Shown here: positions 2,794-43,500 of the stretch, in pieces | How positions within the stretch are numbered: position 1 is the first letter of the stretch | How the letters are laid out: each line of letters opens with the position of its first letter | Source of the DNA: a virus | Lineage: Duplodnaviria > Heunggongvirae > Uroviricota > Caudoviricetes | Reading direction: 5' to 3' (one strand) | Virus record (IMG/VR): IMGVR_UViG_2684622774_000013 | Length of the DNA: 44,555 nucleotides | The notes under the pieces: model-generated | Seen by the model: only the letters and a program-made list of their open reading frames with translations | The model's database searches: none | What the model was told of the DNA's origin: nothing | Program-made: the position numbers and the translations under genes

Positions 2794-5386
2794 TTGCATA
2801 TTCCTTAGCCCAGCGGGGCAGTGATAACGTCTTAATAGCTGGCCATTCATCGGTATTGAGGCAGTCAGCCAGGGTTCGCAGATTGCGGTGATATTCCAGC
2901 TGACCTGCCAGTTTTGCTTCTTCGCCCATCATGAAAATTTCAACCGGATAACGTCCGCATTCAATAGTTGTGCTGGCAACCAGAAAAACGAAAGTTGGCT
3001 GCACTCCAAACTGTGCTTCATAACCGTCACTGTAGAATGCATCCTGAACGTGATAGCGGTAGTCGTAATAAGCGGTTTTGAATCGTTGAATATCCGCCGT
3101 AGTTTTCACGTCCATGATCCAGTGAAATTCAGGGATAATTTTGTCCGGACGGCACCGACACAAAATTGCTGTTTCAGGATCTTCCCAGTAAATTGATGAT
3201 TCAGCGTGTCCGGCGCTTTCAACAAGCCATTGCCCCAGCGGCAAAGCCATAACGCTCTGATACATGAGTTCAATTTTCCGGCCTTCTTCGGCAGTGATAA
3301 CCGTTTTTCCTGTGCTTGCGCATTCCCTCAGAAACGCTTTCTCTTCTTCTTTTCCGGAGTTTGTCCGGCGGTTAAATTCAGGTGCTACGATAAAGCGGTT
3401 ACTGAATTCTTCCGGCTCAAGTACCCGGCAGTGGAAAGCGGTTCCTAAATCGAGCGTTTTTGTCTTTGTGGTGTCCACGGGGGCATTTTTACGCCACAAA
3501 TACAGTGCCGGAGTATCAGCAATGTCATCGAGCTGAGACTTACTGACACCGGGACCCGCGTGGTAATTCTCATTCGAAATTCCGTAATAAATACCTGGCT
3601 CTATGTCTTCTACGATTACGGGATCTGCGACTTCGCCAGTTTCATCACTGCAATCGCGATGCGGATCGCTGCCAGCATTCTCATTGTGCGGATGTTCAGC
3701 GCCTTCCATTTCCTCCGGATCATTTTCCTTAGCTTCAACCTGACTCTCTTCATCGAATGTTTCCTGGTATGTTGCGTCGCCCATCACCGCACCACAGTCA
3801 GGGCAGTTATCCCCGCCAGTCTGGCCGCAGGCATTGCAGGCTATTTCCGGTTCCTGTTGCACTACTGGCTCAGGTTGATTCATATCCGGGCTGGTTTTTT
3901 CCGTTTCTGGCTGGTTCTGGTACACACAATCGCGAGTCTGGATCCCCTTTACCCATTTCGGATCGTTCGGGTCGCTAATTCCGTCAACAAATTCACCACG
4001 TGATGCAGCAAGCAATTTATCGGCATCGACAGGATTTTTTGATGGAATGTTTTTCCGGGCTTCATGGAGTTCTGCCCGCAGTTCCTGATATTTCGCATCA
4101 ACAGAATTTACCTGTGACTGAGCATCCAGCGGCTGCGTGTCCTGATGATGTTCAGTTGCGTCCGGTTCCATTGTTTCAGCCTCTCCCTGTTCAACTGCCG
4201 TTGTTCCAGATGGTTGCGGTTTTTCTTCATCATCCTGTTTTCCTTCTTCTGTTACTCGCTGCGGCATCGGGGCAGAGGAGCGACCGCAGGCAATATCCAC
4301 GATTTCCGGATCAGGGTTGGCATGATCGGTTTCAGTCAGTACTTTGTTCAGATATTCAGTGACGTGCGCGGGGATGACCTCGATCCCAATTGGTGCTTCT
4401 TTTACGGACGCAACCACGATGGCGCGGGAATAATCCAGCCCGCCAGGCATGGTGATGAATTTGTCGCGGAAAACAGAAAAGGGCGGTTTATTTTCAGCGA
4501 TAATTTCCTCAATGCGTTTAGCGTGTGCCGGATGAAGGTTATAGATGTCCAGATCCATTGAACGGGCCAGTACGCCAGTGGCTACGTCCCGCGCCAGTGA
4601 CGTCAGATCGTGTACGAAACCTTCGCCGCGATCGGTGAGGTTTCCGCCGCCAGCATTAGCACCGGAAGCCGTGCGAGTGATGTGTGAAACACGATTACCC
4701 TTCATCCACTCTTTTGTCAGCAGTCCTCGATCGGTGTAGTCAGCGTTCAGGTATGCTTCGAAAAAAGCAGTTATCAGTCCCAGGTTTGAATTACCAGGAT
4801 TAGGGAAAACTTTGTCAGTGTCACGAACCAGTTTGTGGAGTTCGCGAATTTCCAGCGGGTCGAGCAGGCTGGTTTTGTGGGAAACAGCCAGGGCAGTAAC
4901 AGCCGGTAGTTCTTCAGCCCGAGCAATGTGTAATGCCTGGAGTCCGTCGCGTGAAACGTGCGTTACCGGTTTTTCGCTGCCGTGTTGAGCAAGCCAACGA
5001 ATGGGCAGTTCCTGGCCAGAAATTGGGAGTAGCATATTCTCCTCAATCTCAGTCATGTCTTCGCCGTTGACGTTGGTATTGCCTTGATAGTGAGCGTTGT
5101 CTGGTGCTGCTCCCGGTTTTAGTTCCCATGTCATGGAGTCTTTGCTGAGTTGATAGCGTTCACTCCAGGTAAAATCGATCTCACCTTCAGCGGGCAGGTC
5201 ATTAACGACAGGAAAATTCGTGGCAACAGCTTTAAAATAGCTGCTCAGTTTTTTACCTGACTTAACGATCAGGTAGTCCAGAGTGGCACAGGTCGATTCA
5301 AAATCGTTGCTTGCCCACAGGACGACGTCAGGTTCACCGGATGATTTTTTCGCTTTCCGTAACAGGAAGAGTGGTTTTGTGCTCAT
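2786..5386 (-). CDS. recE: Exonuclease VIII RecE (866 aa)
   Basis: Full-length 866-aa ORF recognisable as RecE (N-terminal [20 protein letters not shown]..., C-terminal nuclease domain). Confidence 0.95.
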
Positions 5387-5487
5387 TGTTTTTTAACCTC
5401 AACTCAGATTAAAATTCGTTTTGTTCAGTGAATGATCTTGCCGGATACACACTGTTCATAGCCTGCGCCATACGCAGGCTATTTCTT

Positions 5488-5837: not shown

Positions 5838-6008
5838 TTAAAGTTCATGTGCCATCTGGTCTTTTTCGGCACAAGCTTCACTGCAATATTTTCTCGGTTC
5901 GTCTTTTGATAAAATCCCGTGCATGAAGTGAAGCATTCTTTCAATAGCTTTGCTTTCTTCAACGTCTTTTTTGCAAAGGTGGTAAGCACATTTTATTTTC
6001 TTAGTCAT
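5838..6008 (-). CDS. ydaE: Small Cys-rich protein YdaE (56 aa)
   Basis: Hand-translated; under the track cutoff. [56 protein letters not shown]. Its start codon overlaps the kilR stop (TGATG). Confidence 0.75.
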   Translation of the reverse strand: MTKKIKCAYHLCKKDVEESKAIERMLHFMHGILSKDEPRKYCSEACAEKDQMAHEL

Positions 6009-6229
6009 CACCATGACTCCGCCTTTACAGGTAAACCATCACGACCGAGGAAGACTTTAATCATGCGGTCAGTAATGCATGTTTTTGTGGTCAGGTTACG
6101 AATATATAGTTTTCGCTTTTTAATATTGTTTGCCGAGGCAATATATGTCCGGCCTTCATGAAGAACATAATCGCCAGGAGTCACACACTGACGTGGTATT
6201 TCATCAGTTCCGAAGTGATGTGCAATCAT
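6008..6229 (-). CDS. kilR: Cell-division inhibitor KilR (73 aa)
   Basis: [46 protein letters not shown]... is recognisable as Rac KilR. ATG is the fifth codon of the track ORF. Confidence 0.9.
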
Positions 6230-6410
6230 AATTATCTCCATTTTTACAAATGAACTTTGTTGATGCGGTGCCTGGTGCCTCCAGGTGACTGCAACCAGTT
6301 AACAATTACAGTCGGCTTTCCCACCCAAACCAATAAGGACTAACATGACTTTTAACTGTGCCACGTGCGCTTAGCCGCATTCACCGCATCACAAAATTCA
6401 CTTTAAAAAG

Positions 6411-6452
6411 GGCGGACATCAGCCGAACTTCAAGAAAAAAACTGATGCCGCC
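6411..6452 (-). terminator. Candidate leftward intrinsic terminator or attenuator upstream of kilR
   Basis: Inverted repeat GGCGGACATCAG / CTGATGCCGCC (one bulge) with a 19-nt loop. On the minus strand the hairpin is followed by CTTTTTAAAG. Confidence 0.3.
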
Positions 6453-10228: not shown

Positions 10229-10554
10229 NNNNNNNNNNNNNNNNNNNNNNNNNNNNNNNNNNNNNNNNNNNNNNNNNNNNNNNNNNNNNNNNNNNNNNNN
10301 NNNNNNNNNNNNNNNNNNNNNNNNNNNNNNNNNNNNNNNNNNNNNNNNNNNNNNNNNNNNNNNNNNNNNNNNNNNNNNNNNNNNNNNNNNNNNNNNNNNN
10401 NNNNNNNNNNNNNNNNNNNNNNNNNNNNNNNNNNNNNNNNNNNNNNNNNNNNNNNNNNNNNNNNNNNNNNNNNNNNNNNNNNNNNNNNNNNNNNNNNNNN
10501 NNNNNNNNNNNNNNNNNNNNNNNNNNNNNNAATTTTTACCGGGAGGAAATTTTT

Positions 10555-11748: not shown

Positions 11749-11886
11749 ACGTTACTAGATCAAAGAGCATTAGTTCATATGTAAATTGACATTTTTCTGG
11801 CACAGGGGAGAGCTAGCGTGGTTGTCCGCTTTGTGCCAATAGCGGACATTGCTGGCTCATGGTATGTTAGTTTAAGGAGGCAGGTT

Positions 11887-12909
11887 ATGCCCTGTATTTC
11901 GCTGTGGTATAATAGTTGCGCAATTGATACAAGGGAGCGTTACATCGTGAAAATTGTTTTCGAGGTTAATGGAAAGAAAGTTCCACTAAAATCTTTAAAA
12001 TACATAAGCAAAAAAGATCAACTCGAAGTAATGAAAAACTGGTTCTTTGAAAACTTTGAAGATCCGGCAAATGCTTGTCCGTATGAAAGTAGAGAAGGTG
12101 GCTATGCTTACATATATGGCGGGCCGTATGATGCGAGCGAAGAACTACAATCCATCTTCGGTCAATATGTTAAATCTGAGTATATTGAGGAATTAGTAGA
12201 TGAATTACAAACACAATGTTTTGACTGGTCTGGAAACTCAAATAATATAGATGATTGGTACGATGATGATATCTACGACGCTGTAACGTCTTCCGGTAAT
12301 CCGTATTTAAAATTCATTGATAATATCGATAAAATAAAAAAACTTGCAAAAGATAAAACTGAACAACAGCAAAAAAACCACTTGCTTAGTTTGCTCTACA
12401 CGAATGTTATTACAGCTTTGGAAACGCTTTATGTTGAGCTATTCATTAATTCTATAGAGAAAGATGATGTCTACATAGCCAATTGTATAGAAAAAGGTAA
12501 GACTGAATTTAAAGTAAGCAAAGATATTGCTGCGTTGCCTTTCAAGGGTGAACCCATCGAGAAAATTAGGGGAGAGCTAATCAGGTCAATCAAGGAACAC
12601 TTGATCAGTGCAAGCTGGCATAGCACTAAAAAGGTAATCGACCGCTATGAAGCTACATTCGATATAAAAGTACAAAAAGACTGTCCGATAGAAGCTATTG
12701 AATTGGCAACCCTCAATCGAAATCACTTAGTGCATCGTGGTGGAAAGGATAAAGAAGGGAACCTCGTAGTGATTACAGACCAGGATCTTGAAACGCTGAT
12801 TGAAAATGCATCGAACCTGGCAATTATGCTCTACAACAGTTTAAATGTAGCAACGAATAAAACCACCATTTTGCAACCAGATGACAAACCGTTCATTCAT
12901 GAATTTTAA
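11887..12909 (+). CDS. Hypothetical protein (340 aa) with C-terminal R-x4-H motif, possible HEPN-like domain; first gene of AT-rich cassette
   Basis: ATG at 11887 with AGGAGG at 11875-11880. Alternative GTG start at 11947 preceded by TGgTATAAT (11905-11913) and GGGAG. Motif LNRNHLVHRGG near the C-terminus; coding sequence visibly AT-rich compared with flanks. Confidence 0.65.
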   Translation: MPCISLWYNSCAIDTRERYIVKIVFEVNGKKVPLKSLKYISKKDQLEVMKNWFFENFEDPANACPYESREGGYAYIYGGPYDASEELQSIFGQYVKSEYIEELVDELQTQCFDWSGNSNNIDDWYDDDIYDAVTSSGNPYLKFIDNIDKIKKLAKDKTEQQQKNHLLSLLYTNVITALETLYVELFINSIEKDDVYIANCIEKGKTEFKVSKDIAALPFKGEPIEKIRGELIRSIKEHLISASWHSTKKVIDRYEATFDIKVQKDCPIEAIELATLNRNHLVHRGGKDKEGNLVVITDQDLETLIENASNLAIMLYNSLNVATNKTTILQPDDKPFIHEF

Positions 12910-12924
12910 TAGCGCAGGTCATAC

Positions 12925-13926
12925 ATGGATATTCGCACACGAAAGACAAAATTTTTAGAGTCGTTAGATTCAACTGAAGTGATACGCAAAGCAGTAAGTC
13001 TCGCTATAGATTGCATTATTGATAATCATAATAGTAATGAAGATACCCCCTTAGTTATTACCAGCTATGATGATCTCTGTAGAATCCAGGTGCTAAATTA
13101 TGTACAGGAGTTTTGCGAAGCTGCATTCCCTGATATGGATGAATATTACTTTAGTCCTAACATACTTCGCATCAACGGCAAGACTAGTGAAGAAGCTTGT
13201 ATTAACTTAATTAAACTCTTAAGAAGTACAAAAGGCATGCTATTCTGGTCCGATGCCCCATCGTGGTTCGCTAGCCTCCCCGACGGATTATTCCATGTTG
13301 TTAACATTGATCAAAAAATCGTTACTCGCGGCCTTAATAAGAAAAACTCTAAGCCGACAATAATCAATAAAGATTACAGTGTAGATACACTACTATCAGA
13401 GCTATTTTTGAATGGCGCACACATGGAGCAACCCAACGTACACAACGTTTCTGAGGGAAACATGAAGTTCTATGATGAATGCCATGCTGGATTAATCAGA
13501 CCAATACCCGCTCCAATAGGCGCGTCATACGATGAAGAGATCACAATTAATTCTCCAGATTGGCAAAAGCTCGCGTGTGTAGCTTTACGCCGCTATCAGT
13601 CGAAGGAATGTCATGACGGAATGCAATGGGATACAACCGATCATGGTTGGACTGATGTAATCGCGTATCCATTCGTCGAAGAAATACAATCAATGGATAA
13701 TAGTGGTTATCGACAATGTTTAGTTGGGCTGGTCACAATAAACAATTCAAATGCAAATTCTCCGTACCTATCTACCGTTTGGATACATCCATTTTATCGC
13801 AGGAGAGGGTTATTAAGTAAGTTATGGCCAAAATTACAAGAGTTATATGGAAGTAACTTCGAAATTGAGCGACCTAATGAAAATATGAAAGCATTTCTGA
13901 AAAGTGCGAAACACGCAGATTACTAA
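12925..13926 (+). CDS. Hypothetical protein (333 aa) with GNAT-like C-terminal domain (motif A-like FYRRRGLLSKLW); second gene of cassette
   Basis: ATG 15 bp after the upstream stop, same strand, AT-rich. The C-terminal 130 aa show a GNAT-like pattern (VGLVTI..., RRRGLLSKL, NENMKAFLKS). N-terminal 200 aa not recognised. Confidence 0.7.
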   Translation: MDIRTRKTKFLESLDSTEVIRKAVSLAIDCIIDNHNSNEDTPLVITSYDDLCRIQVLNYVQEFCEAAFPDMDEYYFSPNILRINGKTSEEACINLIKLLRSTKGMLFWSDAPSWFASLPDGLFHVVNIDQKIVTRGLNKKNSKPTIINKDYSVDTLLSELFLNGAHMEQPNVHNVSEGNMKFYDECHAGLIRPIPAPIGASYDEEITINSPDWQKLACVALRRYQSKECHDGMQWDTTDHGWTDVIAYPFVEEIQSMDNSGYRQCLVGLVTINNSNANSPYLSTVWIHPFYRRRGLLSKLWPKLQELYGSNFEIERPNENMKAFLKSAKHADY

Positions 13927-16298: not shown

Positions 16299-16588
16299 TG
16301 GTGAATTTACGTAAAGCGGCTAAAGGCCAGATGTGCCAGATCAGAATCCCTGGCTACTGCAATCACAATCCCGAAACCTCTGTGCTGGCGCATTACAGGC
16401 TGGCGGGGACGTGCGGAACAGCGACAAAACCACATGATATGCAGGCGGCGATAGCCTGTAGCTCATGCCACGATCTAATCGACGGGCGGGTAAAAACCAG
16501 CGATTACACCAAAGAAGAATTGCGCCTGATGCATGCTGAAGGGGTTTTTCGCACACAAGAAATCTGGAGAAAGAAAGGTCATTTATGA
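16298..16588 (+). CDS. YbcO-like protein (DUF1364, putative Zn-binding nuclease), 96 aa
   Basis: MVNLRKAAKGQMCQIRIPGYCNHNPETSVLAHYRLAGTCGTATKPHDMQAAIACSSCHDLIDGR... resembles DLP12 YbcO. Start overlaps the upstream stop. Confidence 0.8.
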   Translation: MVNLRKAAKGQMCQIRIPGYCNHNPETSVLAHYRLAGTCGTATKPHDMQAAIACSSCHDLIDGRVKTSDYTKEELRLMHAEGVFRTQEIWRKKGHL

Positions 16589-17127
16589 TTTACCCAACGA
16601 ATACAGGAAAAAGCGGAGAACACCTTCGCCTCACCACGCTGGAAAGTGTCTGGATTCAGGGAAAACTACGTATGTGGGGGCGCTGGTCGTATATTGGCGG
16701 TGGCAGGTCAGGGAATATGTTCAATCAGTTGTTGGCATCCAAAAAACTGACGAAAACAGCCATTAATGAAGCCCTGCGCAGAATGAAAAAAGCGGGAATA
16801 GAGAAAGCTGAGCTGGAAGCGTTTTTGCGAGAGATGATCAACGGCAAGCAAAAGAGCTGGCTGGCGCATTGTACTGATGCAGAGGCGTTATGTATTGATC
16901 GAGTCATAAGTGAGGTGCTGGCAGAGCATCCAGGATTGATTTGCATTCTCCGGCAACGCTATGAAGGGCGGGGGATGACTAAGCGCAAAATGGCTGAATT
17001 GCTAAATGATGCACACCCAGAGTGGTGTTTTAGCACATGCGAAAAACGGATTGCTAATTGGTTAGCTGTTGCTGAGTATGCCCTATATATTCCCATGCGT
17101 GAATCATTTGCTGAGAAAATGGCTTGA
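16585..17127 (+). CDS. Putative late-gene antitermination protein Q (180 aa)
   Basis: Last gene before the lysis region, start overlapping ybcO-like stop (ATGA). N-terminal LRMWGRWSYIGGG resembles the Q antiterminator family. Followed by terminators. Confidence 0.6.
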   Translation: MIYPTNTGKSGEHLRLTTLESVWIQGKLRMWGRWSYIGGGRSGNMFNQLLASKKLTKTAINEALRRMKKAGIEKAELEAFLREMINGKQKSWLAHCTDAEALCIDRVISEVLAEHPGLICILRQRYEGRGMTKRKMAELLNDAHPEWCFSTCEKRIANWLAVAEYALYIPMRESFAEKMA

Positions 17128-17207
17128 TTTCTTACGTATAAACTGCTTCAATTTTGCTATGCTTCGCAAAGCTGTATCGCGAGGCGGATTGCAGACATGG
17201 ACATCGT

Positions 17208-17234
17208 AAAAAAACCGCTTAATGCGGTTTTTTT
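17208..17234 (+). terminator. Intrinsic terminator downstream of Q (bidirectional-looking, A-run / hairpin / T-run)
   Basis: AAAAAACCGC-TTAAT-GCGGTTTTTTT. Confidence 0.7.
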
Positions 17235-17521
17235 ACGTCAGGAAAGCAGGGGAGAATGCTGCTAGTTGGGCAACTGGTCTTTCTGCTCCAAATTATAACA
17301 GAGACCAGTTATAGTTTCGGTGCTGTGTTTTTTTTACAATATTGTGATAACACATTGCTGGCGGGAGTTTTGATATTTCTTGGCAGGGGCTGATGATGCG
17401 TTATCCTGATGTCGTCAACTCATATAAAATGAGATGAGAGATCATTGCAGGGTGGTTTGTAATTCGCTGTTTAGCGGGACAATATGTTGTCTGATACAAG
17501 ACACCCGACGCCTCAGATTAC

Positions 17522-17580: not shown

Positions 17581-18171
17581 GGGCTGGTTTATTGTATGCC
17601 AAATGATTATTAAAAAGGTTGTGTTAATAACAAGATCCGAAATAATATGCCTGCATATTTTTATCTTGCTTATATTCTGCATATTGTGCATAGCAGGCTC
17701 ATCCCTGCAATCAAAACTGTATGATGAGTATTTTTTGTTTTCCTTTTTTCCAGTCATCTGATGATGACCTGCTTCTTTTTAATCCGGATCGACATCAGTT
17801 TTTTAAGATAATTCCTGCGAGTTATATGCATAAATGCCACAAACTCCGCATTTTATGTGGTTGGGAGTTGCCGGGCGCGCAGTGAGTTTGCTAAGAAAAC
17901 TCCTGCATGGTGAATCCCCCTGTGCGGTGGGGTGATACCATTAACCTTTTCTGTCGCCGACAGGTATCACGAACATTTTGTTCACCGGGAGGCACCCGGC
18001 ACCATGCACTTCAATAGATTCTCTCCACATTATGGATATTCTTTCAGAATATCCCACGCAGACTTTGTGTAAATGTTAACAAATGTGCGTTTTATTTGAT
18101 CTGATTCGCTGTTTGAGCGTCCAAAACAACGGTATATATAATCCTTTACTATATGACATATGTGAGGAAAA

Positions 18172-18600
18172 ATGGGTTTTCGTAGCGCATCAATTCTTAC
18201 GTTGATTATTAGTGGGATTATTATCGGGTGCACTGATGCTGTATCGACAAATTATCATGACCGTACATCATATTACTCCGATAAAGCAATAGAGACACAG
18301 TATGTGAGTTCATCTGAACGTACTTCTGATGTTAGTGAGGATATCCGTCTGTATGCCCATCAAATCAAGAGCGCCATCGAAAAACAGTTCGGGGATGCGA
18401 GTAAGTATTCAGGAAAAGAGTGTACACTGAGAATGCATATGGCCCCGAATGGCCTTCTACTGGAGGTTAAAAGAGAAAGTGGAGACCTCGATTTATGTCG
18501 TGAAGCGATGAATGCGATAAAGAATGCTGATATACCTGCCCCCCCTTCGCCGGAAGTATATAAAGTATTTCAAAATGGGGTGCTGGATTTTAAACCCTGA
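18172..18600 (+). CDS. Lipoprotein with TolA C-terminal (domain III)-like domain, 142 aa
   Basis: Signal peptide with lipobox (IIGC). C-terminal region (YAHQIKSAIEKQFGDASKYSGKECTLRMHMAPNGLLLEVKRESGDLDLCREAMNAIKNADIPAPPSPEVYKVFQNGVLDFKP) closely parallels E. coli TolA domain III. GAGGA SD; TATAAT at 18137-18142. Confidence 0.8.
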   Translation: MGFRSASILTLIISGIIIGCTDAVSTNYHDRTSYYSDKAIETQYVSSSERTSDVSEDIRLYAHQIKSAIEKQFGDASKYSGKECTLRMHMAPNGLLLEVKRESGDLDLCREAMNAIKNADIPAPPSPEVYKVFQNGVLDFKP

Positions 18601-18750
18601 TATTTATTGTTTTGTAATAAACGGTTTCGGCTTAGGTTTGTTCTGACACAGCTACGGCACTGAGCTAAATTTAGCGGATAGTCAGCTCTGAGCCAGTGGC
18701 GGACGTAACAACTACTATTGCTGAGATTTTAATGGATTGAGGAGCAAGAA

Positions 18751-19146
18751 GTGGGATTAAAGAAAATCGTTATGTTGACTTTTTGGGTCGGTTTTGTTGC
18801 GGGATGCACACCTTTACACCCTTCAGATTGCCACAAAACTACTGCTACAGGTAGTTGCAGTTCAGGACGCTGGGATGATCAGGATGAATGGGGGGCGCAA
18901 GCGCGGGGAATCAGAGCTGCAATTAATGCCAAACTTGATGAGCCGCATAACTGGAAAGGGAAAAAATGCAGGTTGCATATGGAATTCTCTCAGGATGGCA
19001 CGGCGTTAAAAATATCTACCAGTAACGGTGATAAAGCCTATTGCGAAGCGATAAAGTCCGCAGCTCATAAAGCCAAATTTCCGGCCTTCAACAATCCGGA
19101 AGTCTACAGAGATTTTCAGAAATCTGGCTTTGACATGCGAGGTTAG
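18751..19146 (+). CDS. Second lipoprotein with divergent TolA domain III-like region, 131 aa
   Basis: GTG start with GAGGAG SD; lipobox VAGC. IRAAINAKLDEPHNWKGKKCRLHMEFSQDGTALKISTSNGDKAYCEAIKSAAHKAKFPAFNNPEVYRDFQKSGFDMRG is a paralog of the upstream gene. Confidence 0.75.
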   Translation: MGLKKIVMLTFWVGFVAGCTPLHPSDCHKTTATGSCSSGRWDDQDEWGAQARGIRAAINAKLDEPHNWKGKKCRLHMEFSQDGTALKISTSNGDKAYCEAIKSAAHKAKFPAFNNPEVYRDFQKSGFDMRG

Positions 19147-19271
19147 CTCTTCAATTACTATATCTCATTCATAGCAAACTGACAGATTTGATGATGTTCT
19201 ATATACGAAACCTGTGATGTCAAGTCTGAGCTAATACAAATAAACATAATATCAGAGAAATACATTTTATT

Positions 19272-19294
19272 AGCTCGCTACGGCGAGCTTTTTA
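19272..19294 (+). terminator. Intrinsic terminator between lipoprotein genes and holin
   Basis: AGCTCGC-TACG-GCGAGCT followed by TTTT. Confidence 0.65.
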
Positions 19295-19397
19295 TATTGC
19301 ATCGTCTCCAGCATATATATCAATTAAGGCTCTGATTGATGTGTCTGAAAGCCTACACATAATAACTATGCCATCCGTTCCGTGCGGAGGTGAGGCT

Positions 19398-19613
19398 ATG
19401 AAATCCATGGACAAAATTTCAACAGGCATTGCCTACGGCACCTCCGCAGGCAGTGCTGGCTACTGGTTTTTACAGTTGCTCGATAGAGTAACTCCGTCAC
19501 AGTGGGCTGCAATCGGTGTGCTGGGTAGTCTGGTATTTGGCCTGCTGACGTACCTGACAAACCTTTATTTCAAGATTAAAGAAGATAAGCGCAAGGCTGC
19601 GAGAGGTGAATAA
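19398..19613 (+). CDS. Holin, phage 21 S-type (pinholin-like), 71 aa with dual-start motif MKSMDK
   Basis: [71 protein letters not shown] is recognisable as S21-like. Two in-frame ATGs at 19398 and 19407; GGAGGTGAGG SD. Confidence 0.9.
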
Positions 19614-19792
19614 TGCCTCCATCATTACGAAAAGTCGTTGCTGCTGCTATTGGTGGCGGAGCAATTGCTATAGCATCAGTGTTAATCACTGGCCCAAGTG
19701 GTAACGATGGTCTGGAAGGTGTCAGCTACATACCATACAAAGATATTGTTGGTGTATGGACTGTATGTCACGGGCATACAGGAAAAGACATC
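19613..19792 (+). CDS. SAR-endolysin (phage 21 R-type lysozyme), N-terminal 60 aa only; remainder N-masked
   Basis: [60 protein letters not shown] has a signal-anchor-release segment. Start overlaps the holin stop (TAATG). Runs into N block 19793-20101. Confidence 0.8.
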
Positions 19793-20101
19793 NNNNNNNN
19801 NNNNNNNNNNNNNNNNNNNNNNNNNNNNNNNNNNNNNNNNNNNNNNNNNNNNNNNNNNNNNNNNNNNNNNNNNNNNNNNNNNNNNNNNNNNNNNNNNNNN
19901 NNNNNNNNNNNNNNNNNNNNNNNNNNNNNNNNNNNNNNNNNNNNNNNNNNNNNNNNNNNNNNNNNNNNNNNNNNNNNNNNNNNNNNNNNNNNNNNNNNNN
20001 NNNNNNNNNNNNNNNNNNNNNNNNNNNNNNNNNNNNNNNNNNNNNNNNNNNNNNNNNNNNNNNNNNNNNNNNNNNNNNNNNNNNNNNNNNNNNNNNNNNN
20101 N

Positions 20102-20542
20102 TCCGCTCTGGTTATCTGCATCATCGTCTGCCTGTCATGGGCTGTTAATCATTACCGTGATAACGCCATTACCTACAAAGCCCAGCGCGACAAAAATGCC
20201 AGAGAACTGAAGCTGGCGAACGCGGCAATTACTGACATGCAGATGCGTCAGCGTGATGTTGCTGCGCTCGATGCAAAATACACGAAGGAGTTAGCTGATG
20301 CGAAAGCTGAAAATGATGCTCTGCGTGATGATGTTGCCGCTGGTCGTCGTCGGTTGCACATCAAAGCAGTCTGTCAGTCAGTGCGTGAAGCCACCACCGC
20401 CTCCGGCGTGGATAATGCAGCCTCCCCCCGACTGGCAGACACCGCTGAACGGGATTATTTCACCCTCCGGGAACGACTGGTAATGATGCAGGCCCAACTT
20501 GAAGGTGCTCAGCAATACATAACCGAGCAGTGTTTAAAGTAA
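20102..20542 (+). CDS. Spanin inner-membrane subunit Rz (i-spanin), 5-prime end in N-masked block
   Basis: [60 protein letters not shown]... is recognisable as lambda-type Rz (Rac rzpR equivalent). Confidence 0.85.
20298..20483 (+). CDS. Spanin outer-membrane lipoprotein subunit Rz1 (o-spanin), 61 aa, embedded in the +1 frame of Rz
   Basis: [61 protein letters not shown] with lipobox and proline-rich region, wholly inside Rz (Rac rzoR equivalent). Confidence 0.85.
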
Positions 20543-20679
20543 AATCTTAACTACAATATGATTCATTTTGATGATTGTTTCATAAGGAACAGTGAAGTAA
20601 GATCTAAGAGGAGTTAAATTTTATACAGTATAATCATAATATTGCAGCAAGGTGGTTATAATTGAAAGAATATTTAGAT

Positions 20680-22137
20680 ATGAATACATCTCATGTAAGA
20701 GTTGTTACTCATATGTGTGGGTTCCTGGTTTGGCTCTATAGTCTTTCAATGTTGCCACCAATGGTTGTAGCATTGTTTTATAAAGAAAAAAGCCTGTTCG
20801 TTTTCTTTATAACTTTCGTTATATTTTTTTGCATTGGTGGCGGAGCGTGGTATACAACTAAGAAATCTGGCATTCAATTACGTACCCGTGATGGGTTTAT
20901 TATAATTGTAATGTTTTGGATTTTGTTTTCTGTTATTAGTGCATTCCCTTTATGGATTGACTCAGAACTTAATTTAACGTTCATTGATGCTCTGTTTGAA
21001 GGGGTTTCTGGAATAACAACAACAGGAGCAACTGTAATTGATGATGTTAGTTCATTACCTCGGGCATATTTGTACTATCGGTCACAGTTAAATTTTATAG
21101 GTGGTTTAGGAGTTATTGTTCTGGCGGTTGCAGTATTGCCATTATTGGGTATTGGTGGTGCAAAGCTTTATCAGTCAGAAATGCCGGGGCCATTTAAGGA
21201 TGACAAACTCACTCCCCGCCTGGCCGATACGTCACGGACACTGTGGATAACTTATTCTTTATTAGGTATTGCTTGTATTGTCTGTTATAGACTTGCAGGA
21301 ATGCCTTTGTTTGATGCTATTTGTCACGGGATTTCCACAGTTTCGCTTGGTGGTTTCTCAACTCATAGCGAGAGTATCGGATATTTTAATAACTATTTGG
21401 TTGAGCTGGTGGCTGGTTCTTTTTCCCTGCTATCGGCTTTCAACTTCACTCTTTGGTATATTGTTATTAGCAGAAAAACGATAAAACCTTTAATCAGAGA
21501 TATTGAACTTCGTTTCTTTCTGTTAATAGCCTTAGGGGTGATCATTGTTACCTCTTTCCAGGTCTGGCATATAGGTATGTATGACTTGCATGGAAGTTTT
21601 ATTCATTCGTTTTTTCTTGCCAGCTCCATGCTCACTGATAATGGTTTAGCTACGCAGGATTATGCAAACTGGCCCACGCACACGATAGTGTTTTTGCTGT
21701 TGTCAAGTTTCTTTGGGGGATGTATAGGTTCAACCTGTGGTGGAATTAAGTCACTTCGATTTCTTATACTTTTCAAACAAAGCAAACACGAGATAAATCA
21801 GCTTTCTCATCCCAGAGCGTTGTTGAGTGTAAATGTAGGAGGGAAGATAGTTACAGATCGTGTAATGAGGTCTGTATGGAGTTTCTTTTTTCTTTATACT
21901 CTCTTCACGGTGTTTTTTATACTGGTGTTAAATGGTATGGGATATGATTTTCTTACATCATTTGCAACAGTGGCTGCATGTATTAATAATATGGGATTAG
22001 GTTTTGGGGCTACTGCATCGTCATTCGGAGTGCTTAATGACATTGCAAAATATTTAATGTGCATAGCTATGATTCTTGGTCGCCTTGAAATTTATCCTGT
22101 TATTATATTGTTTTCAGGTTTTTTTTGGCGCTCCTAA
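20680..22137 (+). CDS. trkG: Potassium uptake protein TrkG (485 aa)
   Basis: MNTSHVRVVTHMCGFLVWLYSLSMLPPMVVALFYKE... is a multi-pass membrane protein recognisable as TrkG, the known Rac moron. AT-rich. The track ORF begins at an upstream TTG. Confidence 0.93.
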   Translation: MNTSHVRVVTHMCGFLVWLYSLSMLPPMVVALFYKEKSLFVFFITFVIFFCIGGGAWYTTKKSGIQLRTRDGFIIIVMFWILFSVISAFPLWIDSELNLTFIDALFEGVSGITTTGATVIDDVSSLPRAYLYYRSQLNFIGGLGVIVLAVAVLPLLGIGGAKLYQSEMPGPFKDDKLTPRLADTSRTLWITYSLLGIACIVCYRLAGMPLFDAICHGISTVSLGGFSTHSESIGYFNNYLVELVAGSFSLLSAFNFTLWYIVISRKTIKPLIRDIELRFFLLIALGVIIVTSFQVWHIGMYDLHGSFIHSFFLASSMLTDNGLATQDYANWPTHTIVFLLLSSFFGGCIGSTCGGIKSLRFLILFKQSKHEINQLSHPRALLSVNVGGKIVTDRVMRSVWSFFFLYTLFTVFFILVLNGMGYDFLTSFATVAACINNMGLGFGATASSFGVLNDIAKYLMCIAMILGRLEIYPVIILFSGFFWRS

Positions 22138-40513: not shown

Positions 40514-43500
40514 ATGGAGCNNNNNNNNNNNNNNNNNNNNNNNNNNNNNNNNNNNNNNNNNNNNNNNNNNNNNNNNNNNNNNNNNNNNNNNNNNNNNNNN
40601 NNNNNNNNNNNNNNNNNNNNNNNNNNNNNNNNNNNNNNNNNNNNNNNNNNNNNNNNNNNNNNNNNNNNNNNNNNNNNNNNNNNNNNNACCAACATCTCCG
40701 GCGTCACGGTGGTGTTCCGGGCAGGTGAGCAGGAGCAGTCACCGCCGGAGGGGTTTGAATCCTCCGGCTCCGAGACGGTGCTGGGTACGGAAGTGAAATA
40801 TGACACGCCGATCACCCGGACCATCACGTCGGCAAACATCGACCGTCTGCGCTTTACCTTCGGTGTACAGGCACTGGTGGAAACCACCTCAAAGGGAGAC
40901 AGGAATCCGTCGGAAGTCCGCCTGCTGGTTCAGATACAGCGTAACGGTGGCTGGGTGACGGAAAAAGACATCACCATTAAGGGCAAAACCACCTCGCAGT
41001 ATCTGGCCTCGGTGGTGGTGGATAACCTGCCGCCGCGCCCGTTTAATATCCGGATGCGCAGAATGACGCCGGACAGCACCACAGACCAGCTGCAGAACAA
41101 AACGCTCTGGTCGTCATACACCGAAATCATCGATGTGAAACAGTGCTACCCGAACACGGCACTGGTCGGCGTGCAGGTGGACTCGGAGCAGTTCGGCAGC
41201 CAGCAGGTGAGCCGTAATTATCATCTTCGCGGGCGCATTCTGCAGGTGCCGTCGAACTATAATCCGCAGACGCGGCAATACAGCGGTATCTGGGACGGAA
41301 CGTTAAAACCGGCATACAGCAACAACATGGCCTGGTGTCTGTGGGATATGCTGACCCATCCGCGCTATGGCATGGGGAAACGTCTTGGTGCGGCAGATGT
41401 GGATAAATGGGCGCTGTATGTCATCGGCCAGTACTGTGACCAGTCGGNNNNNNNNNNNNNNNNNNNNNNNNNNNNNNNNNNNNNNNNNNNNNNNNNNNNN
41501 NNNNNNNNNNNNNNNNNNNNNNNNNNNNNNNNNNNNNNNNNNNNNNNNNNNNNNNNNNNNNNNNNNNNNNNNNNNNNNNNNNNNNNNNNNNNNNNNNNNN
41601 NNNNNNNNNNNNNNNNNNNNNNNNNNNNNNNNNNNNNNNNNNNNNNNNNNNNNNNNNNNNNNNNNNNNNNNNNNNNNNNNNNNNNNNNNNNNNNNNNNNN
41701 NNNNNNNNNNNNNNNNNNNNNNNNNNNNNNNNNNNNNNNNNTTGACCCGGATAACGGCTGGGAGACGGCGACAGAGCTTGTGGAGGATACGCAGGCCATT
41801 GTCCGTTACGGTCGTAACGTCACGAAGATGGATGCCTTTGGCTGTACCAGCCGGGGGCAGGCACACCGCGCCGGGCTGTGGCTGATTAAAACGGAACTGC
41901 TGGAGACGCAGACCGTGGATTTCAGCGTGGGTGCTGAAGGGCTTCGCCATGTACCGGGCGATGTCATTGAAATCTGCGATGATGACTATGCCGGTATCCG
42001 CACCGGCGGGCGCGTGCTGGCGGTGAACAGCCAGACCCGGACGCTGACGCTCGACCGTGAAATCACGCTGCCATCCTCCGGCACCACGCTGATAAGCCTG
42101 GTTGACGGGCAGGGGAATCCGGTCAGCGTGGAGGTCCAGTCCGTCACCGACGGCGTGAAGGTAAAAGTGAGCCGTGTTCCTGACGGTGTTGCTGAATACA
42201 GCGTGTGGGGGCTGAAGCTGCCGACGCTGCACCAGCGATTGTTCCGCTGCGTGAGTANNNNNNNNNNNNNNNNNNNNNNNNNNNNNNNNNNNNNNNNNNN
42301 NNNNNNNNNNNNNNNNNNNNNNNNNNNNNNNNNNNNNNNNNNNNNNNNNNNNNNNNNNNNNNNNNNNNNNNNNNNNNNNNNNNNNNNNNNNNNNNNNNNN
42401 NNNNNNNNNNNNNNNNNNNNNNNNNNNNNNNNNNNNNNNNNNNNNNNNNNNNNNNNNNNNNNNNNNNNNNNNNNNNNNNNNNNNNNNNNNNNNNNNNNNN
42501 NNNNNNNNNNNNNNNNNNNNNNNNNNNNNNNNNNNNNNNNNNNNNNNNNNNNNNNNNNNNNNNNNNNNNNGCTGACAGTCCGGGCAGTAAATGCGTGGGG
42601 GCAGCAGGGCGATCCGGCGTCGGTATCGTTCCGGATTGCCGCACCGGCAGCGCTGTCGCGGATTGAGCTGACGCCGGGCTATTTTCAGATAACCGCCACG
42701 CCGCATCTTGCGGTTTATGATCCGACGGTACAGTTTGAGTTCTGGTTCTCGGAAAAGCGGATTGCGGATATCAGGCAGGTTGAAACCACAGCACGCTATC
42801 TTGGCACGGCGCTGTACTGGATAGCCGCCAGTATCAATATCAAACCGGGCCATGATTATTACTTTTATATCCGCAGTGTGAACACCGTTGGCAAATCGGC
42901 ATTCGTGGAGGCTGTTGGTCAGCCGAGTGATGATGCATCCGGTTATCTGGATTTTTTCAAAGGCGAGATAGGGAAAACCCATCTGGCTCAGGAGCTGTGG
43001 ACGCAGATTGATAACGGTCAGCTTGCGCCTGACCTGGCTGAAATCAGGACGTCCATTACGGATGTCAGCAATGAAATCACGCAGACCGTCAATAAGAAAC
43101 TGGAAGACCAGAGTGCGGCAATTCAGCAGATACAGAAGGTTCAGGTTGATACAAATAATAACCTGAACAGCATGTGGGCTGTGAAGCTGCAGCAGATGCA
43201 GGACGGACGCCTTTATATCGCGGGTATTGGTGCCGGTATTGAGAACACCCCTGACGGCATGCAGAGTCAGGTGCTGCTGGCGGCGGACAGGATTGCGATG
43301 GTTAATCCTGCGAATGGCAACACAAAACCGATGTTTGTTGGTCAGGGCGATCAGATATTCATGAACGACGTGTTCCTGAAACGCCTGACGGCCCCCACCA
43401 TTACCAGCGGTGGAAATCCATCGGCATTTTCCCTGACTCCGGACGGAAAGCTGACCGCTAAAAATGCGGATATCAGTGGCAGTGTGAATGCGAACGCCGG

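Follow-up and report, generated by a model that had tools for sequence, protein, structure and literature searches.

Short TolA domain III lipoproteins encoded between the Q-like and holin genes of a Rac-type prophage: candidate decoys in the Tol import pathway

The N1 domain of the filamentous-phage protein g3p, colicin N and the TolB N-terminus all bind the C-terminal domain of Escherichia coli TolA (TolA-III, residues ~334-421; PDB 1TOL, 2X9A, 3QDP/3QDR and 1S62) by strand addition to beta3 (A415-K420) together with helix alpha2 (334-349), with dissociation constants (KD) of ~1 µM for colicin N and g3p and 40 µM for TolB, and either of the substitutions D418P and K420P in TolA abolishes this binding (PMC4339652). 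Colicin A uses the opposite edge of the domain (L375-P380, beta2), with cation-pi contacts to K368, K379 and K396 (PMC3365938). The two tandem genes considered here, ORF1 and ORF2 (for open reading frame), lie in a stretch of 44,555 nucleotides (IMG/VR record IMGVR_UViG_2684622774_000013, the whole of which is called the window), a Rac-type lambdoid prophage of E. coli, and encode homologues of E. coli TolA-III with the same alpha/beta fold, disulfide and C-terminal edge strand. Unlike E. coli TolA, they have a lipoprotein signal peptide and a short linker (25-35 residues) and are encoded on mobile elements; whereas domain I couples TolA proper from the inner-membrane side to TolQR and the proton-motive force, ORF1 and ORF2 would be anchored from the opposite, outer membrane.

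Llp of T5 and Cor of phi80, N15, HK022 and mEp167 are small phage outer-membrane lipoproteins, expressed from prophage or early genes, that shut the FhuA entry route of phages and colicins. The exclusion function proposed here for ORF1 and ORF2 follows the same logic, although there is no sequence or fold relationship to Llp or Cor, and those proteins inactivate an outer-membrane receptor, whereas ORF1 and ORF2 would imitate a periplasmic co-receptor. Superinfection immunity conferred by filamentous-phage g3p interrupts the same contact between TolA-III and its ligand, in that periplasmic g3p N1 sequesters TolA, makes cells resistant to colicin A and lowers phage uptake by 4 logs (PMC10424213). 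The present case would be its mirror image, with the ligand occupied by a spare TolA-III instead of TolA by overproduced ligand. Lambdoid morons (stx between Q and S; bor by the lysis genes) resemble the ORF1/ORF2 cassette in slot, promoter- and terminator-like signals and mosaic boundaries, but the protein encoded is a different one. Overproduced soluble periplasmic TolA-III reportedly gave colicin tolerance and phage resistance with some leakiness in the hands of Levengood-Freyermuth, Click and Webster in 1993; that free domain would be a laboratory version of the function proposed here, artificial, soluble and overexpressed where ORF1 and ORF2 are natural, predicted to be lipid-anchored and diverged. 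The TolA-III domain and the annotation label are already known, whereas a lipid-anchored, motor-less TolA-III on mobile elements and the role proposed for it are not in the searchable literature.

Against the Pfam TolA_C profile (PF06519; gathering score 25), ORF1 scores 82.6 bits (E 2.4e-23; residues 49-140, profile positions 4-96 of 96) and ORF2 54.6 bits (E 1.3e-14; residues 44-125, profile positions 10-92 of 96), both above threshold, which bears out the parallel that a sequence-only reading of the locus had drawn between these C-terminal regions and TolA domain III. Among PDB sequences, residues 55-142 of ORF1 align with E. coli TolA 334-421 without a gap and with the same C-terminal proline (E 5e-28), and ORF2 residues 50-129 match E. 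coli TolA with E 5e-9. Identity to TolA-III amounts to 52/88 positions (59%) for ORF1 and 27/88 (31%) for ORF2, and the domains of ORF1 and ORF2 are identical to each other at 25/88. AlphaFold2 (AF2) models built from family alignments have a predicted local distance difference test score (pLDDT) >90 throughout the domain in both ORFs, the signal peptide and linker being of low confidence. The top Foldseek match was TolA-III in each case, 2x9a_B for ORF1 (template modelling (TM) score 0.96, root-mean-square deviation 0.6 Å) and 3qdp for ORF2 (TM 0.92, 1.1 Å), with TonB-type domains far behind, so that structure prediction and superposition on TolA domain III, the check put forward with the sequence-only reading, came out in its favour. 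Its description of the proteins as TolA-III mimics stands as regards fold and likeness; mimicry alone does not, since the sequences are homologous (up to 59% identity). The cysteine pair of the TolA disulfide is invariant in alignments of both ORF families (Cys84-Cys109 of ORF1 being equivalent to TolA C363-C388), and exposed C-terminal beta3 strands are predicted that end in LDFKP in ORF1 and FDMRG in ORF2, with no proline at the equivalents of positions 418 and 420.

Neither ORF has the TolA transmembrane domain I or the long helical domain II. In the NCBIfam TolA models the match is confined to the final ~90 positions (265-362 of 362 and 293-386 of 387); the NF007065 scores (107.8 and 53.7) lie under the cut-off of 213, neither protein being TolA proper by that model, and ORF1 exceeds the TIGR02794 cut-off through its C-terminal domain alone (75.6 versus 59.45). 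By these comparisons ORF1 and ORF2 are true TolA-III homologues, each a free-standing domain on a predicted lipid anchor. No TolA-III-like fold was found in the BFVD viral structure library.

Lipoprotein signal peptides with lipoboxes IIGC and VAGC (pattern [LVI][ASTVI][GAS]C) are found in the two proteins just as first claimed. ORF1 begins MGFRSASILTLIISGIIIGC... and has the signal peptide MGFRSASILTLIISGIIIG-C20, with R4 in the n-region followed by ...IISGIIIGC; ORF2 begins MGLKKIVMLTFWVGFVAGC... and has the signal peptide MGLKKIVMLTFWVGFVAG-C19, with K4 and K5 followed by ...WVGFVAGC; in both, the n-region is positively charged and the h-region hydrophobic. The lipobox is conserved in nearly all full-length homologues. 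Position +2 after the lipid-bearing cysteine is Thr in both ORFs and mostly Ala, Ser or Thr, rarely Gly or Val, in the full-length homologues; because it is never Asp, the Lol sorting rule predicts that ORF1 and ORF2 are probably anchored in the outer membrane.

Divergence among homologues, expressed as the ratio of nonsynonymous to synonymous substitution rates (dN/dS, by Nei-Gojobori), points to purifying selection on both genes, strong in the case of ORF2: ORF1 compared with a 66%-identical variant gives 0.36 over the full length, with 0.24 for the domain and 0.50 for signal peptide plus linker, and ORF2 compared with plasmid, Serratia, Citrobacter and Enterobacter homologues gives 0.08-0.17 at dS 0.5-1.05. 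The Prokaryotic Genome Annotation Pipeline (PGAP) labels ORF1 a tolA pseudogene, 'incomplete, missing N-terminus' (20441-20701 in the closely related prophage L001, corresponding to ~18340-18600 of the window, and in 136 other E. coli genomes), and ORF1-type variants 'tolA: cell envelope integrity protein TolA', a label that arises because the C-terminal domain alone exceeds the TIGR02794 cut-off. What the pseudogene label implies is that the genes are non-functional remnants, pieces of a captured tolA gene, and its presence in near-identical genomes agrees with this, as does the match of TolA models to the last ~90 residues only. That explanation is very improbable. Both ORFs are intact, ORF1 variants down to 65% identity keep the full ORF, Shine-Dalgarno sequence, signal peptide and lipobox, these features are likewise kept in other diverged homologues, and the same short lipoprotein architecture recurs in clusters at 50% identity, of which there are dozens. 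With the ORFs whole, the lipobox conserved and dN/dS well under 1, the pseudogene reading was rejected. The PGAP call looks like an artefact of the full-length TolA model, a systematic mis-annotation that hides an intact lipoprotein gene.

ORF1 and ORF2 belong to a large family of short lipoproteins with a TolA-III domain. When 1.84 billion representative proteins were searched with a profile, 586 matched, and among the best 150 of these, 77 are 105-170 aa long, 60 of the 77 having a lipobox. Many short members end in ...FKNAPLDFKP, like TolA, and they have been named only automatically ('TolA protein', 'colicin import membrane protein'); one family member lies on a phage-like contig and another in an ordinary chromosomal context. 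Of 5426 complete E. coli genomes, 771 (14%) carry the ORF1/ORF2 pair at >=99% identity, and the Rac prophage of E. coli K-12 lacks it. The only deposited phage genome with the pair is mEp460_ev081, and 152 IMG/VR contigs encode a relative of ORF2. The only PHROG matches at E<=0.01 were phrog_5772 ('unknown function', both ORFs) and, weakly, phrog_5374 for ORF2 (E 0.0035, also of unknown function). In the full-text literature, from which subscription journals are largely absent, no functional study of such proteins was found; mentions are confined to reference lists or gene tables, for example 'TolA protein, hypothetical protein' in a table of variable regions of uropathogenic E. coli. One paper reports 32-fold ciprofloxacin induction of EDL933_2012, which is described there as a tail fibre protein of prophage CP-933O that resembles TolA; this was not used as expression evidence. 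In another phage record a 72-aa gene at the essD (holin) position is labelled 'Phage tail fiber protein'.

ORF2-type genes also occur on ~600 plasmids, at ~87% nucleotide identity. On pO157-type IncF plasmids the gene is found beside psiB, psiA and hok, upstream of toxB, and on I-complex conjugative plasmids (IncK2/Z, IncIγ/K1) 67 bp 3' of the relaxase gene in the same orientation. A scan of one I-complex plasmid (L003) found no promoter-like site of its own for the ORF2-type gene, which is probably co-transcribed with the relaxosome operon. In this plasmid and two others (L020, L021) the gene, at locus positions ~4995-5426 or 5995-6426, follows a nikB-type relaxase gene, and a small conserved hypothetical gene (231 bp) is convergent to it. 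Stand-alone chromosomal copies can be detected in ~30 Enterobacterales species of genera that include Enterobacter, Citrobacter, Klebsiella, Raoultella, Leclercia, Serratia, Pantoea, Kluyvera and Rouxiella, and no conserved partner gene was found around 30 homologues from different species. In Serratia marcescens (four loci, L008-L011, 6001-8736) the ORF2-type gene is located between nrdDG and a GmrSD (DUF262) plus HEPN (MAE_28990/RiboL-PSP) pair, a locus that looks like a small defence islet. Two 8-kb contigs with an ORF2-type gene (89% identity) come from metagenome-assembled genome bins labelled Lachnospiraceae and Treponemataceae, and are most likely mis-binned enterobacterial plasmid or phage contigs.

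Conservation of the ligand-binding surfaces was read from the alignment of each ORF with TolA against the published contacts (PMC4339652, PMC3365938). ORF1 is identical to TolA at 6/8 positions of beta3 (...VLDFKP) and 11/18 of alpha2 (YAHQIKSAIE), and of the lysines contacted by colicin A it keeps K379 and K396, K368 being His; ORF2 is identical at 1/8 positions of beta3, where the D418 equivalent is kept and there are no prolines, and at 5/18 of alpha2, and has Glu, Ser and His at the three lysine positions. The two proteins are not equivalent on this evidence, ORF1 being predicted to keep the TolA-III ligand surfaces, that is the g3p/colicin N/TolB face and most of the colicin A site, and ORF2, diverged at both, to have lost most of them. 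Conserved positions in 59 short TolA-III lipoproteins are the same as in full-length TolAs, and D418 (0.73 versus 0.28) and A341 are more conserved than in TolA, the hits having been chosen with a profile from these ORFs.

The best-supported reading of these observations, put forward tentatively, is that ORF1 and ORF2, tethered to the outer membrane, act in the Tol import pathway as decoys or competitors. The lipidated proteins would be carried by the Lol pathway to the inner leaflet of the outer membrane, given Thr at +2, and the TolA-III domain would hang just beneath that membrane, uncoupled from the TolQR motor. With TolA-III serving as the periplasmic hub for g3p N1, colicin N and the TolB N-terminus (beta3/alpha2) and for colicin A (beta2), an unenergised copy near the entry point could capture colicin translocation domains or the g3p tip ahead of the real TolA, and a lysogen or plasmid host would then tolerate Tol-dependent (group A) colicins and resist filamentous phages. 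ORF1 would be a close surrogate for TolA ligands, and ORF2 a diverged paralogue with its own conserved linker, whose ligand is probably narrower or different. Expression might come from a weak promoter of the cassette's own in the lysogen and, after induction, at high level from the late transcript, the cassette being the first genes after the Q-dependent late promoter region, ahead of the holin. Because colicin N and g3p bind TolA-III far more tightly than TolB does, a decoy at low level could catch invaders without crippling Tol-Pal. The accessory-gene behaviour of the cassette (mosaic module, stx position, plasmid carriage and the defence-gene neighbour in Serratia) also counts for a decoy, and the sequestration of TolA by g3p N1 is a precedent for protection of cells when the contact of TolA with its ligand is blocked.

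Several findings weigh against the decoy. The conserved surface also binds the endogenous TolB N-terminus, so conservation cannot tell a decoy from Tol-Pal modulation. Of the two proteins ORF2 is the better conserved and the more widely distributed, and it fits poorly as a TolA look-alike, with only 31% identity to TolA-III, one of eight beta3 positions and none of the three colicin A lysines; ORF2-type genes standing alone in ordinary chromosomal neighbourhoods of many genera, with no conserved partner, would fit a housekeeping envelope role as well. A search of PADLOC-DB 2.0 returned no match for the family at E<=1. The promoter and terminator of the cassette are consensus matches only, and 11 promoter-like sites are counted in the region against 6.5 ± 2.5 in shuffles.

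The main rival to the decoy is modulation of Tol-Pal itself. In competition with energised TolA, a tethered TolA-III would occupy the TolA box at the N-terminus of TolB, so that less Pal would be mobilised and the outer membrane held less tightly to the cell wall. Vesiculation or envelope remodelling could follow, or, at full expression of the late operon, the outer membrane might be disrupted and virions released more easily; any colicin or phage tolerance would be a side effect. This explanation is judged unlikely, if worth serious consideration. In its favour, the cassette opens the late operon and is followed at once by the genes for holin, endolysin and spanin. No part of ORF1 is better kept than beta3, the strand to which TolB binds, and the 59 short lipoproteins share their conserved residues, D418 among them, with full-length TolAs. 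Point mutations that block the TolA-TolB contact produce the full tol phenotype (PMC4339652). The cross-genus conservation of ORF2 (78-89% identity, dN/dS ~0.1) would suit a conserved host target better than diverse invaders. However, the affinity of TolA for TolB is weak (40 µM). A leaky envelope would be a burden to a lysogen or plasmid host, but 14% of complete E. coli genomes retain the genes, which also persist on plasmids and, under purifying selection, as chromosomal genes; the outer membrane is already handled at lysis by spanins, and the plasmid and chromosomal contexts have no link to lysis. A decoy for colicins and filamentous phages and a modulator of Tol-Pal, the two functions raised at the outset by the sequence-only reading, are both consistent with all findings, and that proposal remains plausible.

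ORF2 leaves room for a different partner, because it has diverged from TolA-III yet is very conserved across genera. In the ORF1 protein the linker (residues 21-54) is of low complexity and low pLDDT. That of ORF2 is nearly invariant across genera, has two extra cysteines (C27, C36) and the motif GRWDDQDEWG, and is modelled by AF2 at pLDDT ~89 around W41-W47; such conservation and a partly confident model are unusual for a mere tether. The ORF2-type family at least might therefore be a neofunctionalised domain, using the TolA-III scaffold and the Cys-loop/WDDQDEW linker for some other envelope partner, with a function not predictable from TolA. Its 31% identity to TolA-III, its divergence at both mapped interfaces and the independent, stand-alone distribution of its genes agree with this. 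Strand addition is mostly backbone-driven, however, and many beta3 sequences still work in TolA (PMC4339652). ORF2 moreover keeps an exposed, proline-free C-terminal strand and the D418 equivalent, and its gene neighbourhoods suggest no alternative partner, so that this explanation too is considered rather improbable. Colicins carry a TolB box of the form DGSGW...W; resemblance of the linker SSGRWDDQDEWG to it was set aside as pure speculation, the essential Asp being absent and the Trp spacing different.

Extended to the whole family, the decoy reading becomes more doubtful, but it is conceivable that short outer-membrane-tethered TolA-III lipoproteins form a widespread unrecognised protection system on Enterobacterales prophages, conjugative plasmids and chromosomes, serving as unenergised decoys that block group A colicins and pilus-dependent filamentous phages and, on I-complex plasmids, guarding the pilus-bearing host from the male-specific phages that the plasmid attracts. 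The pili of I-complex plasmids are receptors for the filamentous phage If1. PDB 2x9a, which is among the Foldseek matches, is If1 g3p with TolA-C. The ORF2-type gene on these plasmids is suggestive because their pili serve a phage whose g3p uses TolA-C.

Should the proteins be decoys, they would represent a new kind of lysogenic-conversion or plasmid-fitness function, in which a periplasmic co-receptor is imitated instead of a surface receptor masked. They are common, the pair being present in 14% of complete E. coli genomes and ORF2-type genes in many Enterobacterales as well as on plasmids of the pO157 type and of IncK/Z. They could therefore influence how gut bacteria compete by means of colicins, which hosts filamentous and plasmid-dependent phages can infect (with phage display and plasmid curing among the uses concerned) and the outcome of colicin-based antimicrobials. 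Were TolB the protein trapped, they would count as natural inhibitors of the Tol-Pal system, in which there is interest as a target for antibacterials. Under either reading the current genome annotation of ORF1 ('tolA' or tolA pseudogene) misleads.

The coordinates of the cassette and of the genes that bound it are collected in Table 1; ORF1 and ORF2 are present where the sequence-only reading had placed them, in a slot between Q and S whose boundaries are confirmed by PHROG matches to a Q-like gene upstream and a holin downstream.

Table 1. Features of the ORF1/ORF2 cassette and its flanks, in positions of the window
Feature	Position	Strand	Evidence or remark
Q-like late-gene antiterminator	16585..17127	+	phrog_753 'anti-termination protein Q-like', E 2e-79; upstream boundary of slot
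STnc100-family small RNA match	17875..18061	+	Rfam RF02076, 86.6 bits (gathering score 47), E 1.8e-18
Sigma-70 promoter-like site TTGAGC-18 nt-TATAAT	18113..18142	+	10/12 consensus positions; consensus match only
ORF1 lipoprotein precursor, 142 aa	18172..18600	+	intact ORF, Shine-Dalgarno, lipobox, TolA domain III
ORF1 predicted lipid-bearing Cys20 codon	18229..18231	+	lipobox IIGC
ORF1 TolA domain III, residues 55-142	18334..18597	+	C-terminal ...VLDFKP beta3 strand
ORF2 lipoprotein precursor, 131 aa	18751..19146	+	GTG start, GAGGAG Shine-Dalgarno, lipobox, diverged TolA domain III
ORF2 predicted lipid-bearing Cys19 codon	18805..18807	+	lipobox VAGC
ORF2 linker region, residues 19-48	18805..18894	+	C-x7-C-x8-C then SSGRWDDQDEWG; near-invariant across genera
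ORF2 diverged TolA domain III, residues 44-131	18880..19143	+	Cys73-Cys98
Intrinsic-terminator-like hairpin AGCTCGC-TACG-GCGAGCT then TTTTAT	19272..19295	+	7 pairs, 5 G-C; hairpin itself 19272-19289, 3' of ORF2; consensus match only
Class II holin (essD-type)	19398..19613	+	phrog_9876 and phrog_20 holin, E 1e-37; downstream boundary of slot
Rz1-type spanin	20298..20483		

Both regulatory signals named in that reading are found in the sequence as consensus matches, the TATAAT at 18137-18142 being part of the promoter-like site, which ends 30 nt before the ORF1 start, and the hairpin with its TTTTAT tract lying 3' of ORF2; no terminator-like hairpin was found in the ORF1-ORF2 interval. Of the traits of a lambdoid moron, the position between phage genes and the mosaic boundaries are present, promoter and terminator standing as consensus matches only. 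The boundaries can be traced with the 80 IMG/VR loci that were kept, which are near-identical E. coli prophage copies and were used for this purpose only. A breakpoint at ~17980, inside the STnc100 match, recurs in 34 of the 80 and in phage mEp460, which carries a different Q gene, so that the cassette is found behind two different Q genes; the pair therefore moves as a unit, in many cases together with the holin. With plasmids only a gene-sized stretch of DNA is shared, ~18721-19149. The STnc100 match is probably part of the pR'-proximal leader or terminator region, and may be a short pR'-proximal transcript of this phage type. Weak isrK-like matches, under the gathering score, occur at 17161-17289.

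Other E. coli prophages have a single ORF1-type gene (66-80% identity) in the same slot. In one of these the order is an Antiterm-type Q gene, TfpB-like and AraC-like genes, the ORF1-type gene, nanS-p, the holin gene and a lysozyme gene, and in a prophage of an O22:H8 Shiga toxin-producing E. coli (STEC) strain it is Q, a methyltransferase gene, tRNA-Ile, tRNA-Arg, the ORF1-type gene, then nanS-p and the holin gene. The position after the tRNA genes in the STEC prophage is that of stxAB in Stx phages, in agreement with the analogy to the stx slot that had been drawn from the window.

A complete E. coli genome matches most of the window in three blocks at 98-99.6% and differs at ~8.5-15.3 kb, the early/replication part; its annotated gene order is intR, recET, kilR ... 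DUF1133 protein, two TolA-related genes, essD, rrrD, lysis protein and trkG. A near-identical E. coli prophage has the Q-like gene under the name DUF1133 family protein, and in near-identical genomes the holin gene is annotated essD. Runs of N mask the window at 10229-10530, 19793-20101, 40521-40687, 41448-41741 and 42258-42570, of which that at 19793-20101 hides most of the endolysin gene (the rrrD equivalent); a long ORF listed at 19613-20542 was rejected as an artefact in which the endolysin and Rz genes are fused across the mask.

In the early region, after the replication genes (DUF1376, DUF977), two adjacent cargo genes are located at 11818-12909 and 12925-13926, both on the + strand, which encode proteins of 363 and 333 aa. 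A search of PADLOC with the two proteins gave no match, and Pfam gave only sub-threshold hints (a HEPN/RES N-terminal domain and GNAT). Prophage L001 differs in content in this part of the early region, where it has an island of BCCT transporter, LysR and MFS genes. The region may be a hotspot for prophage cargo, and the two genes found here a still uncatalogued defence or toxin pair.

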